From positions 20,452-84,451 of the forward strand of contig CANQFS010000001.1 in the NCBI GenBank assembly GCA_947599825.1: a stretch of 64,000 nt of DNA, in the 5' to 3' direction. The translations under genes and the position numbers were made by a program. How positions within the stretch are numbered: the first letter of the stretch is position 1; every line of letters begins with the position of its first letter. The notes beneath the pieces are model-generated. The model worked only from the letters and a program-made list of their open reading frames with translations. It ran no database searches and was not told the DNA's origin. This document shows positions 13,991 through 20,591 of the stretch, one piece after another. This stretch comes from an uncultured Clostridia bacterium (GTDB taxonomy: Bacteria > Bacillota > Clostridia > TANB77 > CAG-508).

Positions 13991-15633
13991 GGTGAGTTGT
14001 AAAAGTAACTTCCAAAAGAAAAAGTAAATTCCAAATGTAAGAGAAACGTCAACTTTTAGGCGTTTCTTTTTGAATAAATATTGATTTTTTTTGAAAAAAA
14101 GTGTAAAATTAACTTACAGAAACGAGAAATTGAGCATGACAAACAAGCAAAAAGAAATAAATTTATTTTTTATGTAAGATTAACTTCCGTTTGCTTAAAG
14201 GTCTTATTCAGTTATAGATGTTTCTAAGGTTGTTCGATTTTTTATCGAATAAAGTTAAATGTTTATTTTATGTTTAAAAGATATGGTTGTAACGTAACCA
14301 TATCTTTTTCTATCCTTTGTATATTAAGCTTCTTTAGTATTTCACTACCATACAAAAATTCAAATGCTTCATATGGTGTTTTTCCATTTAAAGATTTTCG
14401 TGGTGCAGAATTAATATGTGAAAACATTAAATCTAAATCTTGTTGTGTAAGCTTTTTCAAAGATTTACCATTAGGCAAAATATCTCTAACATAATTATGA
14501 TTGTTTTCTACATGAGGCTTTTGACTTGGAGTTTGTGGGTCACAATAAAATATGTTAGTTCGTATTTCGCCAGTTTCCGTATTTACTTCAAATAGTTGAT
14601 ATTTTTCAAATTCCGTTCCTCTGTCAGTTAAAAGAAGTGAAAACAGTTTGTAATAATCATCTTTTAAAATTTCTTGTAATTTATCAAGTGTACTTGCCAT
14701 TGATTCTGATGTTTTTTCTGTATGTATAAATCCTATCATTAATCCTGTATTCTGAAAGATAAATGTTTGAATATATGGACCATCTTGATGGTTGTATACA
14801 GTATCCATTTGAGTAGTTGATATGGTTGGATTATCTTGAATAAATTTTAGATAATCTGTATATCTTCTTCCTTCATAATTTACAGGTTCTTTACGTTTCT
14901 TTAATTTTTTTCTTTTTCTCATTGAAACCTGTCTACGTAAAGAAAAATTATTAATGCCATAATCTTGAAAAATACCACTTTCAATATACATATACAATGT
15001 TTTAGAACACATATTAAGTTCTGGATGATTTTTTAATATTTGATAGACAGATTGACCTTTATTTAAAAGAGGTTTAATGATATCTACAATCTCTAACATT
15101 TCTTTAGTATTTAAATTAACTCCTTCTCTAGAATCTTTTAGGGTATATGTATAGTCATTATGAGCTTGTCTAGCACGATAAAAATATTTATCTAATCTAC
15201 ATTTAGAAATATCAGGACAAAGATTACAAACACCGACTTTTCTATCTCTTCTAGCACATTTTATTTCTTCATATTCAGAACATTTACCATGACATATACC
15301 ACATTGTTTAAATTTAGTACAAGTAATAGGATTATTAAAGGGATTTCTAGGATTTAATTTTCTTCTGTTTTTTATTTCTTTTGCAACAGTTGAAATATCC
15401 TTATTAATATTTTTGGCTATTTCAGTTCTAGACAAACCTTTTTCAAGTCCTTCTTGAATAGCTTGTCTATCTTCTAGAGTTAAATGTGAATTTTTCATAA
15501 TTACCTCCATCTAACCTTAGAAACATCTAAGTTCTATTATATCATTTAGAACTTAATCTTACAAATTTTACTTTGTGTAAATTTTACTTCTAATTTTATA
15601 TATTACTTTTGGAATTTACTTTTAAAATTTACG
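13991..15633 (-). mobile_element. IS30-family insertion sequence
   Basis: Flanked by the 13-bp direct repeat tacattttttcgt (13978-13990 and 15634-15646). Imperfect terminal IRs contain taaaagtaa(c/a)ttccaaaag. It holds an IS30-type DDE transposase ORF and subterminal gtaa..acttcc repeats. Confidence 0.85.
14263..15498 (-). CDS. IS30-family transposase
   Basis: N-terminal HTH (LTLEDRQAIQEGLEKGLSRTEIAKNINKDISTVAKEIKNRR) and a C-terminal DDE region (LTDRGTEF ... HVENNHNYVRD). The start is moved to the ATG at 15498, preceded by ggagg. Confidence 0.9.
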   Translation of the reverse strand: MKNSHLTLEDRQAIQEGLEKGLSRTEIAKNINKDISTVAKEIKNRRKLNPRNPFNNPITCTKFKQCGICHGKCSEYEEIKCARRDRKVGVCNLCPDISKCRLDKYFYRARQAHNDYTYTLKDSREGVNLNTKEMLEIVDIIKPLLNKGQSVYQILKNHPELNMCSKTLYMYIESGIFQDYGINNFSLRRQVSMRKRKKLKKRKEPVNYEGRRYTDYLKFIQDNPTISTTQMDTVYNHQDGPYIQTFIFQNTGLMIGFIHTEKTSESMASTLDKLQEILKDDYYKLFSLLLTDRGTEFEKYQLFEVNTETGEIRTNIFYCDPQTPSQKPHVENNHNYVRDILPNGKSLKKLTQQDLDLMFSHINSAPRKSLNGKTPYEAFEFLYGSEILKKLNIQRIEKDMVTLQPYLLNIK

Positions 15634-16456: not shown

Positions 16457-17443
16457 TTACTCTAATATTTCTCCTGCCATAATGTTATTTCCTCGCAAGA
16501 AGTCTTTTACTTGCATTCTTTTTGCATTTTCGCCTTGTATTTCTTCTACCTCAATAATTCCTTCTTTTGCTTTAATAAATAAGCCTTTCTTATCACTTGC
16601 AAATAAAATAACTCCTTCGGCTACATCTTGTAATTTATATAAATATTCTTCTAGTTCTGGAAATAGGGAAACTAGCTCTTGCTCTGTTTTTACTTTTACT
16701 TTCCATAGTTTTAATTTCTTTCCATTTAAGAAAGTATAGGCTCCCATAATAGGGTTTAAACCTCTTACTAAATTATGAATTTCTTCTGCTGTTTGTTCTT
16801 CCCAATTTATTTTCGCCATTTCTTTCTTTAACATTGGCGCTAAACTAAAATTTTCTCCTTGTTTTGTTCTTATAACGGTTCCTGCTTCTATTTGTTTTAA
16901 GGTCTCTACTAAAAGTTTTCCCCCCATTTTAGAAAGTCTATCCCAAAGCTCTCCTGTTGTTTCTTCCCTTCCTATTTCAGTTTCTTCTTTTAGAATAATA
17001 TCTCCTGTATCCATGCCAATATCCATATACATAGTAGTAACACCAGTTGTTTTATCACCATTTAGCACAGCCCATTGAATTGGCGCTGCCCCTCTATATT
17101 TTGGAAGAAGAGATGCATGTACATTAATACAGCCATATTTTGGAATATCTAAAATCTCTTTTGGTAAAATCTTTCCATAAGCAACTACACAAATAACATC
17201 TGGATTTAATTCTTTCACAGTTTGTAAAAATTCCATATTGTTTTTTACTTTTTCTGGTTGATAAATAGGAATGTTTCGTTCTATGGCATATTCTTTTACC
17301 GGAGAAAATACCATTTTCATTCCTCTTCCTTTTGGTTTATCTTGATTAGTTACAACTCCGATTACATCATAATTTGCTTCTATTAAACTTTTTAAAGACT
17401 CTTGTGCGAAGTCTGGCGTTCCCATAAACAAAACTCTAAGCAT
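16457..17443 (-). CDS. fmt: Methionyl-tRNA formyltransferase
   Basis: MLRVLFMGTPDFA start at 17443 with aaggag SD, plus the HASLLPKYRGAAPI motif. The 32 extra N-terminal residues in the track ORF are read-through of the repeat element. Confidence 0.93.
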   Translation of the reverse strand: MLRVLFMGTPDFAQESLKSLIEANYDVIGVVTNQDKPKGRGMKMVFSPVKEYAIERNIPIYQPEKVKNNMEFLQTVKELNPDVICVVAYGKILPKEILDIPKYGCINVHASLLPKYRGAAPIQWAVLNGDKTTGVTTMYMDIGMDTGDIILKEETEIGREETTGELWDRLSKMGGKLLVETLKQIEAGTVIRTKQGENFSLAPMLKKEMAKINWEEQTAEEIHNLVRGLNPIMGAYTFLNGKKLKLWKVKVKTEQELVSLFPELEEYLYKLQDVAEGVILFASDKKGLFIKAKEGIIEVEEIQGENAKRMQVKDFLRGNNIMAGEILE

Positions 17444-17537
17444 ATTACACTCCTTTTTTATTAAACCCTGTCCCAAATTGTCCCATTTGTACCAATTTGG
17501 GACTGTTCCCAATTGTCCCAAATTGTCCCTAATTGTC
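17444..17537. repeat. GGGACAAT-variant repeat block filling the def-fmt spacer
   Basis: The coding-strand reading is gacaattagggacaatttgggacaattgggaacagtcccaaattggtacaaatgggacaatttgggacaggg. This holds several GGGACAAT(T)T units plus an internal inverted pair, and overlaps the def stop. Confidence 0.75.
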
Positions 17538-18008
17538 ATTTGGCTCTACATATTCTAACGTTCCTGGTATCATTTTTTCTACAAAAGTAATACCATTTAG
17601 ATGGTCTATTTCATGACATAAAGCTTGTGCTAGTAAATCTTTAGCATCAATTTTTATTTTTTTACCATTTTCATCTAAAGCTTCTACTTTCACTTCTTTT
17701 GGTCTTATTATTTTGGCATATTTATTAGGAAAACTTAAGCAACCTTCTTCTACTTCTTGTTCTCCCTTTTCTTTTAAAATAACTGGATTAACTAACTTTA
17801 TTGGTCCTTTTTCATCATATAAATCTATAACAATTAGCCTTTTTAAAATACCTACTTGCACAGCAGCTAATCCTACTCCATTGTATTTATGCATAGTTTC
17901 TACCATATCTTCTAATAATTCTCTTATTTTATCATCTATGGTTTCTACTTCTCTTGACTTCTTTTTTAATATTTCGTCTCCTTCTTCTCTAATACTTCGA
18001 ATTGCCAC
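17529..18008 (-). CDS. def: Peptide deformylase
   Basis: 159 aa with EGCLSFP and HEIDHLNG metal-binding motifs. GTG start is preceded by agggggg. Confidence 0.95.
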   Translation of the reverse strand: MAIRSIREEGDEILKKKSREVETIDDKIRELLEDMVETMHKYNGVGLAAVQVGILKRLIVIDLYDEKGPIKLVNPVILKEKGEQEVEEGCLSFPNKYAKIIRPKEVKVEALDENGKKIKIDAKDLLAQALCHEIDHLNGITFVEKMIPGTLEYVEPNDN

Positions 18009-18045
18009 TTTTGTTTTTCCCCCCTTTTTTTCAATGTCTCATTAA

Positions 18046-18350
18046 GTACCATTAGGGACGTTTCCTTTTGGTACATCTGTCCCTAATGGATATTCGTTTT
18101 ATAATGATAATATAAAACTTTCAAAAATGCTCGTTCAAGTTGATTTATCGCAGAAATTCTAAATAAATTTTACGGCACCCTTCCATTTAAAATGAACTCT
18201 TTCCGTAAAATTTATTAAGAATTTCTAAGCTCAATCACTTTCAATACGCTTTTTTCAAATTTTATATTATCATTATAAATATTTATCAATGTACCAAAAG
18301 GGACAGATGTACCAAAAGAAAACGTCCCCAATGGTACCCCAAATGGTAAC
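18046..18350. repeat. 305-bp composite palindromic element: two inverted full GGGAC-box copies around an AT-rich core with nested inverted repeats
   Basis: The left copy is 18046-18089, gtaccattagggacgtttccttttggtacatctgtccctaatgg. The right copy is 18291-18350, inverted. Nested IRs are tataatgataatataaaa/ttttatattatcattata and agaaattctaaataaattttacgg/ccgtaaaatttattaagaatttct. Confidence 0.85.
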
Positions 18351-20591
18351 TTACATCATATTTGATGGATTTATTTCTATGGTTTGTGAAATGCTTTTTT
18401 TGCACTCGTTTTGCTCTATTGCTTGGTGCAATAGTGTGTTGATTTGTTCATTATAAATGCATTTTATAATCATACGCCAACGATATTTATTTTTTATTTT
18501 ATCTATTGGTGCTGGCACTGGGCTATATAATAGAATGCCTATTTTTTCTGTTATAATTCGATTTTTTAAATATTCATATACTTTTTTTGCTTGTTTTATT
18601 ACTTCTTGCTCTTTTTCTGAACTAAAACCAATTACTATTATATCGCAAAAAGGTGGATATTTCAACTGTTTTCTTATTGGTATTTCACTTTCATAGAATT
18701 CTTTATAGTCTTGCTGTTTTGCTTGCTCAATTGCTAAACTATCCGGGTTATATGTTTGTATTAATACTTTTCCTTGTAGTTTTTCTCTTCCTGCTCTTCC
18801 TGCTACTTGTGTTAGGATTTGGAAGGTTCTTTCATTTGCTCTAAAGTCTTCAATGTTTAAACTACTGTCTGCTGCAATTACCCCTACTAATGTTACTTTT
18901 GGAAAGTGATGTCCTTTTACAACCATTTGCGTTCCTATTAAAATGTCTATGTTTTCTTCTTTGAAGCGATTTAGTATTTCTTCATGCGAATTTTTTTTGC
19001 TTACTGTATCTACGTCCATACGAATTGTAGTTGCATTTGGAAATAGTTTTTGTACTTCTTGCTCTAGTTTTTGCGTACCAGTTCCAAAGTAACGAATGTT
19101 AGTACTTTTACATGCTGGGCATACTGTTACTTTTTTTTCTTCATAGCCACAATAATGGCATTTTAGTTTATCTTGTTTTAAGTGATAAGTCATTGTAATA
19201 TTGCAATTTTTGCATTTTACTGTATAGCCACAATCTCTACACATTACAAAGGTAGAATATCCTCTTCTGTTTAAAAATAAAATTGTTTGCTGTTTTTTTT
19301 CTAAATTTTCTTTTATGGCTTCTTGTAATTTTACACTTAGCATAGAGCGGTTTCCATTTTGCAGTTCTTCTCTTAGGTCAATTATTTCTACTGCTGGAAG
19401 ACTAGAGTTATTAGCTCTTTTCTTTAATTCTAATAGCTCTATTTCTCCTTTATTTGTCTTATAAAAAGTTCCTATTTCTGGGGTTGCACTTCCTAAAATA
19501 AGTGGACATAAATTTTCTTTGGCTAATATTTGTGCTACTTCTTTTGCATGATATTTTGGCGTCATTTCAGATTGGTAAGAAGAATCATGTTCTTCGTCTA
19601 TAATAATTACTCCTATGTTTTGAATTGGTGCAAATATTGCAGACCTAGCACCAATAACAATATTTATTTTGCCAGATGCTATTTTTTGCCATGCATCATA
19701 ACGCTCCCCAATAGATAATTTGCTATGTAAAACTGCTATTTTTTCTTTTCCAAATCTTGACATGAAACGTTCTACCATTTGAGGTGTTAGTGAAATTTCT
19801 GGTACAAGCATTATGCTTGTCTTGCCTTTACTTATTGCTTTTTCAATTGCTTGCATATAAATTTCTGTTTTTCCAGAGCCTGTCACTCCAAATAGCAAAA
19901 ATTGGCTATTTTTTTGCTTTTCTATTGCTTGTTCAATTTTTTCATAGGCTTTTTCTTGCTCATCATTTAATTTTAATTTTTCTGTTTTTTCTACTTCTTT
20001 ATAAAGAAACGGATTTCTTTCTACTTGCTTTTCTACTATTTCAATATAGCCATTTTTTTCTAAGGTTTTTATTATTGCTCTTGAGGTATCGGTAAATATT
20101 TCTAAGTCGCCAGTAGTAATTGCATCGTTTTCCATTAAGAAACGTAAAATACGTATTTGCTTTTCTGATTTTATTTTTTCATTTTCTATTTCCCACTCAA
20201 TTTCGTCTTCTTCTTTTTTCAAATATACAAAATTGTTGGTTTTCTCTTTAATTCTATTTTCTACTTTATTTGTTTTAGTTCCTGGCGGTAACATGAGTTT
20301 CATGCTATCTGATAAATTACAAAAATATCTTTTGGAAATCCATTTTGCTAGTTTGATTCTTTTTCCATTTAAGAATGGATTGTCCGACATACTTGCAATT
20401 TCTTTTGTTTCAAAAGTTGATGTTTCTTTTAAACCTACTACAAAACCTTCTTCTAAAACTTTTCTTCTTCCAAAAGGAACAAAAACACGATTACCTATTT
20501 TTATTTGTTTTTCCATGTCTTTTGGCACTTTATAGTCAAAGGTTCTATCTAAATCTTTTGCATTGGAATTTAAAATAATTTCTGCAATCAT
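18351..20591 (-). CDS. priA: Primosomal protein N' (replication restart helicase PriA)
   Basis: 746 aa with Walker A GVTGSGKT, DEEH box IIIDEEHD and a Cys-rich zinc-binding insert. Confidence 0.95.
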   Translation of the reverse strand: MIAEIILNSNAKDLDRTFDYKVPKDMEKQIKIGNRVFVPFGRRKVLEEGFVVGLKETSTFETKEIASMSDNPFLNGKRIKLAKWISKRYFCNLSDSMKLMLPPGTKTNKVENRIKEKTNNFVYLKKEEDEIEWEIENEKIKSEKQIRILRFLMENDAITTGDLEIFTDTSRAIIKTLEKNGYIEIVEKQVERNPFLYKEVEKTEKLKLNDEQEKAYEKIEQAIEKQKNSQFLLFGVTGSGKTEIYMQAIEKAISKGKTSIMLVPEISLTPQMVERFMSRFGKEKIAVLHSKLSIGERYDAWQKIASGKINIVIGARSAIFAPIQNIGVIIIDEEHDSSYQSEMTPKYHAKEVAQILAKENLCPLILGSATPEIGTFYKTNKGEIELLELKKRANNSSLPAVEIIDLREELQNGNRSMLSVKLQEAIKENLEKKQQTILFLNRRGYSTFVMCRDCGYTVKCKNCNITMTYHLKQDKLKCHYCGYEEKKVTVCPACKSTNIRYFGTGTQKLEQEVQKLFPNATTIRMDVDTVSKKNSHEEILNRFKEENIDILIGTQMVVKGHHFPKVTLVGVIAADSSLNIEDFRANERTFQILTQVAGRAGREKLQGKVLIQTYNPDSLAIEQAKQQDYKEFYESEIPIRKQLKYPPFCDIIVIGFSSEKEQEVIKQAKKVYEYLKNRIITEKIGILLYSPVPAPIDKIKNKYRWRMIIKCIYNEQINTLLHQAIEQNECKKSISQTIEINPSNMM

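Follow-up and report, generated by a model that had tools for sequence, protein, structure and literature searches.

REPIN-RAYT systems, or REPtrons, have been described in detail (Bertels & Rainey 2011, PMC3116915; Quentin et al. 2018, PMC6006769). They combine short palindromic repeats (REPs), mostly arranged as head-to-head doublets, with a single-copy Y1 HUH transposase gene (the RAYT; TnpArep, 4ER8) that lies between its own inverted REPs; each RAYT paralogue has a REP type of its own, repeat and gene are found in the same genomes, and insertion leaves no target duplication. The locus described here shares all of these traits. Descriptions of the doublets, or REPINs, mostly present them as minimal pairs of hairpins whose short spacers measure a few tens of bases. 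Here, the host belongs to a low-GC uncultured gut Clostridia lineage and the spacer of its doublet is a 200-bp independent foldback element. RAYTs have been reported from Clostridia, although without strong REP association (PMC5581495).

REPs with a CGTC tag are another point of reference (Di Nocera et al. 2013, PMC3733652): the tag is terminal and unpaired, stems are 8-9 bp and loops 4-5 nt long, and these repeats have been linked to no transposase. The TIRYT/TIRtron (PMC3733652) resembles the present case in that a tyrosine transposase lies between inverted repeats of which further copies are scattered through the genome. The motif found here has CGTC on one strand (GGAAACGTCCCC), but at the loop-stem junction, and the repeats flank a Y1 gene. 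E. coli BIMEs consist of REP pairs around conserved internal motifs, for example of the IHF-binding RIP/RIB type. Our element resembles them as an inverted REP pair around a conserved internal module, placed between the genes of an operon; in contrast to the BIMEs, its internal module is a long palindrome that is dispersed on its own. IS1397 and ISKpn1 are autonomous IS elements with a transposase that target the hairpin loops of REPs, and they offer the parallel of one element central in another palindromic element, that is, of nested palindromes; our core, unlike them, has no gene, and no insertion of it into an empty carrier was found.

The window (the whole stretch of DNA that was analysed, 64,000 nucleotides) comes from a 1.53-Mb metagenome-assembled genome (MAG) with 28.7% G+C, the source genome, G000, which stems from a rabbit gut community. 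Its positions 18046-18350 are a non-coding composite palindrome of 305 bp between priA and def. From the priA stop to the def start there are 342 nt, taken up nearly entirely by the palindrome, which reaches from the priA stop to the ribosome-binding site of def (ribosome-binding site and GTG start lie 37 nt past the element edge). The genes follow one another on the minus strand as priA, def and then fmt. We read the palindrome as a nested, non-autonomous mobile element, a REPIN shell around an independent dispersed foldback core, and put the probability of that reading at roughly 0.68. Its parts and neighbours are as follows.

17529-18008, minus strand: def, the downstream gene (Pfam Pep_deformylase, 1e-49).
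18032-18045, no strand: 3' arm of an older GAGAC-type REP hairpin remnant (reverse complement TTAATGAGACATTG), outside the composite.
18046-18089, plus strand: left terminal REP, long form, 44 nt (GTACCATTAGGGACGTTTCCTTTTGGTACATCTGTCCCTAATGG), with the motif GGGACGTTTCC on the plus strand.
18098-18117, no strand: layer 3 left arm, a 20-bp AT-rich inverted repeat (TTTATAATGATAATATAAAA), from inverted-repeat comparison.
18118-18151, no strand: layer 2 left arm, an imperfect core arm (CTTTCAAAAATGCTCGTTCAAGTTGATTTATCGC) kept in window-type core copies.
18152-18226, minus strand the more stable one (GGAAAGAG...GGGTG): apical hairpin module, about 75-76 nt, defined by covarying stems and a covariance model.
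18176-18202, minus strand: apex, a covarying mini-stem of 4 bp enclosed by the invariant internal loop (on the plus strand, CACCCTT / ACTCTTT).
18227-18259, no strand: layer 2 right imperfect core arm, from inverted-repeat comparison.
18260-18279, no strand: layer 3 right arm, the matching 20-bp AT-rich inverted repeat, from inverted-repeat comparison.
18291-18337, minus strand: right terminal REP, long form, an inverted copy of the left one, from inverted-repeat comparison.
18338-18350, minus strand: extra partial REP arm (CCCAAATGGTAAC), 13 nt, a direct repeat that abuts the priA stop codon.
18351-20591, minus strand: priA (Pfam PriA domains), the upstream gene, whose stop codon abuts the element.

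The preliminary description of this DNA had placed two full elements in inverted orientation at the ends of the palindrome. The left one stands as drawn (18046-18089); the right one ends at 18337, and what had been taken as its last 13 nt (18338-18350) is the partial arm. The outermost pairing, of 18046-18111 with 18272-18337, runs over 66 nt at 79% identity. The two further nested inverted repeats that had been noticed around the centre are there, as 18098-18127/18250-18279 (30 nt, 90%) and 18115-18188/18190-18263 (74 nt, 73%), and the centre itself (18176-18202) is asymmetric. The long imperfect hairpin that had been proposed is also what computed folding yields: each single strand forms one long hairpin, at -143.1 kcal/mol (minus) and -121.2 kcal/mol (plus), when shuffled sequences fold at about -62 and -47 (z = -17.2 and -22.5), and none of 100 shuffles folds as well. 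Layer 3 varies in sequence among core copies, yet is self-complementary within each copy. The layer 2 left arm is conserved in the window-type cores of G000, G004, G006, G013, G018 and G019. Two neighbouring frames may be mentioned in passing: the 360-aa call of the fmt ORF (window 16457-17539) includes extra N-terminal sequence overlapping the end of def, and a 415-aa ORF with an HTH_38 domain near the palindrome (window 14263-15510) is probably an IS30-family transposase.

The outer shell of the palindrome is a REPIN made of two inverted copies of the genome's main REP, and its cognate enzyme would be a RAYT-like HUH/Tyr transposase. The REP motif, GGGGACGTTTCC with at most two changes, has 87 copies in the 1.53-Mb genome, in short palindromic repeats that are mostly intergenic; the two terminal hairpins of the palindrome measure ~45 nt each. 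The window holds 10 copies, with 0.02 expected by chance. Neighbouring REPs of the genome form 19 head-to-head, no tail-to-tail and 8 tandem pairs. The doublets span 51-198 nt from motif to motif, the exceptions being two composites at 275 and 276 nt, and 17 of the 19 head-to-head doublets have no core. The preliminary description had suggested that the composite could be the mobilisable unit of the family. Since most REP doublets lack the cargo, the composite is not the family's basic mobile unit; the core, for its part, thrives without REPs and without a Y1 transposase. Hairpin arms covary among REP subtypes (GTACCA/TGGTAC, GACGCA/TGCGTC, GATGCA/TGCATC); the variable 6-mers around the motif, once considered as target duplications, were rejected as such because they are these covarying arms. 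In contrast to classical RAYT-associated REPs, these have no GTAG tag: the tetranucleotide is not found at the hairpin foot (REP consensus GGTACCATTGGGGACGTTTCCTTTTGGTACATCTGTCCC). A further family of perfect palindromes, GGAAAGATTTGGGACGTGTCCAAATCTTTCC, shares the GGGACG core; it occurs at G000:C8:1205-1266, C20:5560-5679, C25:5136-5204 and elsewhere, mostly as inverted pairs. Separately, a GH15-like ORF of 355 aa has REPs in frame, at window 63300-63370 (translated ...VPLGLPLGTFPFGKSVPFGT...) and, C-terminally, at 62666-62700.

The presumed mobiliser of the terminal REPs is encoded in the same window, by a single-copy gene 43 kb from the palindrome, with these features.

61632-62486, minus strand: RAYT-like Y1 HUH transposase gene (PF01797, 2e-13).
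61673-61719, plus strand: REP of the long form at the gene's 3' end, facing the opposite way to the upstream REP (a REPtron arrangement).
62666-62694, minus strand: short-form REP hairpin upstream of the RAYT-like gene, from reading of its flank.

The gene and its inverted REPs are a REPtron-type system. The source genome has three Y1 genes, one a plain IS200 TnpA and the other two longer (284 and 254 aa), and both of the longer proteins fit the REP_Tyr_transpos model (NF047646) better than the IS200 model. The 284-aa protein of the window scores 67.1 bits and its paralogue 77.3; neither reaches the NCBIfam equivalog cut-off of 80 bits. That shortfall and a C-terminal helix-turn-helix extension of ~150 residues distinguish the enzyme from those of described REPtrons. 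A profile of the RAYT-like protein and its paralogues, run against the PDB, has E. coli TnpArep (4ER8) as its only match, with the HUH motif and the tyrosine aligned; H63 and H65 (HUH, here HAH) and Y122-x-H-x-N-P (YIHKNP) are invariant in the RAYT-like proteins. The gene sits between the GH15-like gene and radA, and its frame continues through the downstream REP.

Repeat and gene go together. Among 41 genomes, 10 or more REPs are present in 12 of the 14 that have an orthologue of this gene (RAYT-1) versus 2 of the 27 that do not (Fisher p = 9e-7). The RAYT-1 orthologues of G003, G004 and G006 are flanked by inverted REPs and that of G011 also has the downstream one; where both flanks could be read, the orthologue lies at the same genomic place in relatives. 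Most of the RAYT paralogues examined (seven REP types) are flanked by a distinct REP type of their own, and the type GGGGACGGGTCAC, which flanks a third RAYT paralogue, also encloses the core composites of G013, G018 and G019, where the same core recurs inside this different REP at many loci. Systems of this REP-RAYT kind are known; what is unusual is the host. The lineage should be useful for testing RAYT specificity because it is Gram-positive, has a small genome and holds several RAYT-REP pairs side by side. On either side of the second RAYT-like gene of the source genome (G000:C10:31675-32478, L083) lies a different repeat, GGAGGGACGCCCC...GTTCCAAAATGGAAC...GGGGACACCCC; related repeats occur in the window at ~8713 and ~29503, one of the places being the grpE-dnaK spacer.

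We infer the enzymatic steps by which such an element would move. The RAYT would recognise and cut the terminal REP hairpins in single-stranded DNA and would rejoin them at sites that usually already hold a REP, and the sequence between two REPs would hitch-hike. The composite itself probably arose once and then spread as a unit to several loci, among them the priA-def spacer.

That spacer was compared across 77 related loci, a comparison that the preliminary description had proposed and that separates empty from filled sites. In L001 (PriA 95% identical) it is an empty site of 24 nt, which comprise the stop codon and the ribosome-binding site only. In L002 (PriA also 95%) it holds one 45-nt REP of a different stem subtype. 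In L003, the closest relative (PriA 97%), the composite is present too, with orientation and outer flanks as in the window but with ~100 nt of its centre deleted, and the spacer retains both arms of the GAGAC-type hairpin (GTGTCTCTTTGG ... TTAATAAGACATTG), of which the window has a remnant. The composite therefore entered the priA-def spacer once the lineages of L001 and L002 had split off. Intact GAGAC-type hairpins are present at the same position in L040 and L045, and remoter species have other members of the REP family there or nothing, so that the spacer is evidently a recurrent landing place. Long priA-def spacers, of 225-440 nt, are also seen in more distant species (L049-L053, L070-L073).

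The full composite is present at four non-orthologous loci in three species, as listed here.

Locus 1: the priA-def spacer, in the source genome G000.
Locus 2: upstream of uvrA, in G000 and G006.
Locus 3: a G006 locus that matches C1:86.9 kb.
Locus 4: a G004 locus that matches C7:16.7 kb.

The order of parts is REP, spacer, AT-rich repeat, core, AT-rich repeat, spacer, REP, and the asymmetry between left and right spacers is identical at all four. The composite spreads as a unit, to judge from these same asymmetric spacers at four different places. Neither the junctions at the four composite loci nor the surroundings of core-only copies have a target-site duplication, and at the composite junctions that is what is expected for Y1 enzymes. 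At each composite locus that was compared, the precise position of the composite is taken in relatives by a different member of the family, be it a GAGAC-type or GGTAC-type hairpin of 29 nt or an element of the GGGACAAT type, which is why sites that hold a REP seem to be the targets. Instead of true transposition, gene conversion among REPs already resident, with one copy replacing another, may account for the spread. Just outside the window, at G000:C1:86880-86950, a repeat of the GGGACAAT/GGGACTGTCCC type lies exactly where G006 has the full composite; this type of repeat also flanks the RAYT homologues of G001, G008 and G018.

These comparisons bear on two quite different accounts of the palindrome. 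It might be ordinary spacer DNA that received two REP insertions independently, or an artefact of assembly; priA-def and other sites are indeed hot spots for REPs, and the REP forms there differ by species. The preliminary description had tied the former account to a core unique to this locus and present in relatives without the terminal elements. The core is instead multi-copy and missing from the empty site, and independent MAGs hold the same composite at orthologous positions (L003, and G006 at uvrA), so that we give neither version any appreciable credence. The palindrome might also have been built in place, a small hairpin having grown outward through template switching, or arm copying, of its flanks including the REP, with no insertion at all. 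Template switching at quasi-palindromes is an established mutational route, the core-only copies C28, C6:21498, L087 and L101 are flanked by near-perfect inverted repeats that are specific to each copy, and some copies have private substitutions common to both arms. Growth in place would nevertheless have to produce the same composite with the same asymmetric spacers at four unrelated loci, the priA-def site of L001 is empty with no trace of a seed hairpin, and inner asymmetries have been kept rather than erased. We consider it very unlikely as an account of the whole, although outward growth by template switching is an alternative route by which the core may have reached the centres of its carriers.

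On the preferred reading, a REPIN with a nested core, further changes would follow insertion: the long inverted arms would recombine, flipping the centre and spreading private substitutions to both arms, and slippage would delete parts. Changes of each kind are found. At two orthologous loci (uvrA and C28), G000 and G006 have the core in opposite orientations. Private substitutions common to both arms number 11 in the second composite type, with 3.95 expected (reached in 1 of 2000 permutations), and L085 has three in both arms; in the five window-type copies taken alone, arm co-variation is not significant (4 versus 1.8 expected). C4:4353 is a composite minus its core, the deletion ending at short direct repeats, and deletions with such ends are also seen in L003, in G006 and G004 at the C28 site, and in short forms of the G016 element described below. 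Flips, shared arm substitutions and deletions are all expected of long inverted repeats, which recombine and slip. All genomes used are MAGs, in which long palindromes can be mis-assembled, and the flips and the L003 deletion could in part be assembly effects.

The core, that is, the ~190-200-bp foldback interior between the two terminal REPs, belongs to a dispersed repeat family of its own. At the heart of this repeat is an apical hairpin of 76 nt, which is conserved throughout the bacterial family. The search for other copies that the preliminary description had called for finds, in the source genome, a full composite with both REPs at C6:15131-15422 (91% identity over 292 nt), core copies without REPs at C6:21498 and C28:5685, and partial copies on C26 and C29. 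These copies, the REP termini, the RAYT-like gene, the empty site and the several occupied loci support the earlier comparison to a MITE or a REPIN with cargo. Of 25 genomes of the genus, 15 contain the core by BLAST, in many cases at the end of a contig; phage and plasmid collections gave no match to it. The core family is abundant in genomes that have no Y1 gene at all (G005, G010 and G012), and thrives in genomes without REPs. Its own spread is therefore independent of the RAYT, as its presence within the G016 MITE also implies. A recurrent gene near the core was sought by clustering the ORFs within 2 kb of 80 loci; unrelated housekeeping genes alone were found, with no transposase.

Only the innermost 76 nt are common to all core subfamilies. 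Six stem pairs of this apical hairpin covary, and even diverged subfamilies have an identical 7+7-nt internal loop, CACCCTT/ACTCTTT. The covariance model built from the hairpin (R1) has matches in 24 of the order's 151 genomes, which represent 9 of 28 genera, with 1-29 copies per genome. At least 119 MAG stretches from gut Clostridia (human, rabbit, ruminant, mouse and chicken) contain the exact apex motif. Of the two strands, the one with GGAAAGAG...GGGTG gives the better fold in 45 of 47 copies in one set and in 74 of 74 in the other, by ~9 kcal/mol on average. Because one strand folds better in nearly all copies, the apical fold must be selected on one particular strand, as RNA or single-stranded DNA; together, covariation and strand polarity show selection on a single-stranded fold of one or the other kind. 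The new element in the nested cargo is this widely conserved, strand-specific apical hairpin.

Could the core, or its 76-nt hairpin, simply be a functional structured RNA (an sRNA, or a cis element in the priA-def-fmt transcript), the REPs being incidental? The covarying stems and the internal loop that stays invariant as subfamilies diverge speak for an RNA, the strand preference is the signature of strand-selected G-U (or G-T) pairs, and at this site the better-folding strand is the sense strand of priA and def. However, a G-T-tolerant hairpin of single-stranded DNA accounts for the polarity equally well. A search of Rfam 15 with the window region and six diverse copies gave nothing relevant, even at E <= 1. 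Conservation between subfamilies stops at the edges of the 76-nt module, so that they have no promoter or terminator in common. Scored against the longest flanking ORFs, hairpin orientation with respect to co-directional flanking genes is 29 antisense versus 19 sense (p = 0.19), and in G016 it is 12 antisense versus 2 sense. Copy number varies from 0 to 29 per genome, the module is missing from most genomes of the order, and its orientation flips at orthologous loci. On balance a structured RNA seems to us rather unlikely as the explanation of the locus. A scan for intrinsic terminators at the element finds none, and on the minus strand no U-run follows it. One weak promoter-like match in the core points toward def (TTGAAC, 18 nt, TATATT), but no promoter is claimed, as such hits number 2 in the region with 3.7 expected from shuffled sequence.

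The apical hairpin lies at the centre of at least three kinds of carrier that differ in mechanism: the G016 MITE, the REPINs of two RAYT systems, and terminator-like hairpins. Given these three carrier types, and its persistence in genomes without a Y1 transposase, we suggest tentatively that it may be a functional single-stranded module, either an undescribed passenger element or an RNA/ssDNA signal for a host factor. As a passenger it could invade the loops of other palindromes or be captured by them. The repeat that flanks the C28 copy resembles a terminator stem, and other species have ordinary terminators at that site, which suggests insertion into hairpin loops.

REPINs are not usually described with cargo of this size; this one appears to have an unrelated palindromic element of 200 bp as a cargo that it spreads. 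With the same cargo in the REPINs of two RAYT systems and in a DDE-type MITE, the elements would be modular and mutually hitch-hiking. In practical terms, the element accounts for an unusually long gap in the essential priA-def-fmt cluster, and annotators of such MAGs may be warned that gaps of this sort are mobile hairpins and not regulatory regions. The conserved apical hairpin adds an uncharacterised motif present in those 119 or more MAG contig stretches.

The MITE just referred to, in G016, is of the classical foldback kind: the 76-nt hairpin is central in an element of ~255 nt with 18-bp terminal inverted repeats (GTTACTAGATAATGGTTT), and 8 of 12 copies have 8-bp target duplications (chance expectation ~0.4% per copy). 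The window composite differs from classical foldback MITEs in its REP termini and in having no target duplication. A pattern search of the terminal repeats for an autonomous G016 parent gave MITE-sized pairs only, none at IS-like spacing; with the neighbour genes of the 80 loci, this means that no parent autonomous IS with the same ends was found. Versions of ~130 nt, considered as empty carriers, were rejected as slippage-deletion derivatives of the long form, and for that reason they cannot prove that a core was inserted into a carrier. Copies of the MITE are listed as L207-L225 (L216:1400-1700 is an example), and one 1.5-Mb genome holds 54 copies of the terminal repeat. Finally, ~20 otherwise near-identical G016 copies (L163-L180) have a nearly copy-specific patch of 4-6 nt in the 3' arm of the inner hairpin, CCATAAAAT[NNNNN]AGAATTTCT, in which TGCAC, TACAA, CAAAA, GTCAT, GGCAT and others appear while the opposite arm is constant.
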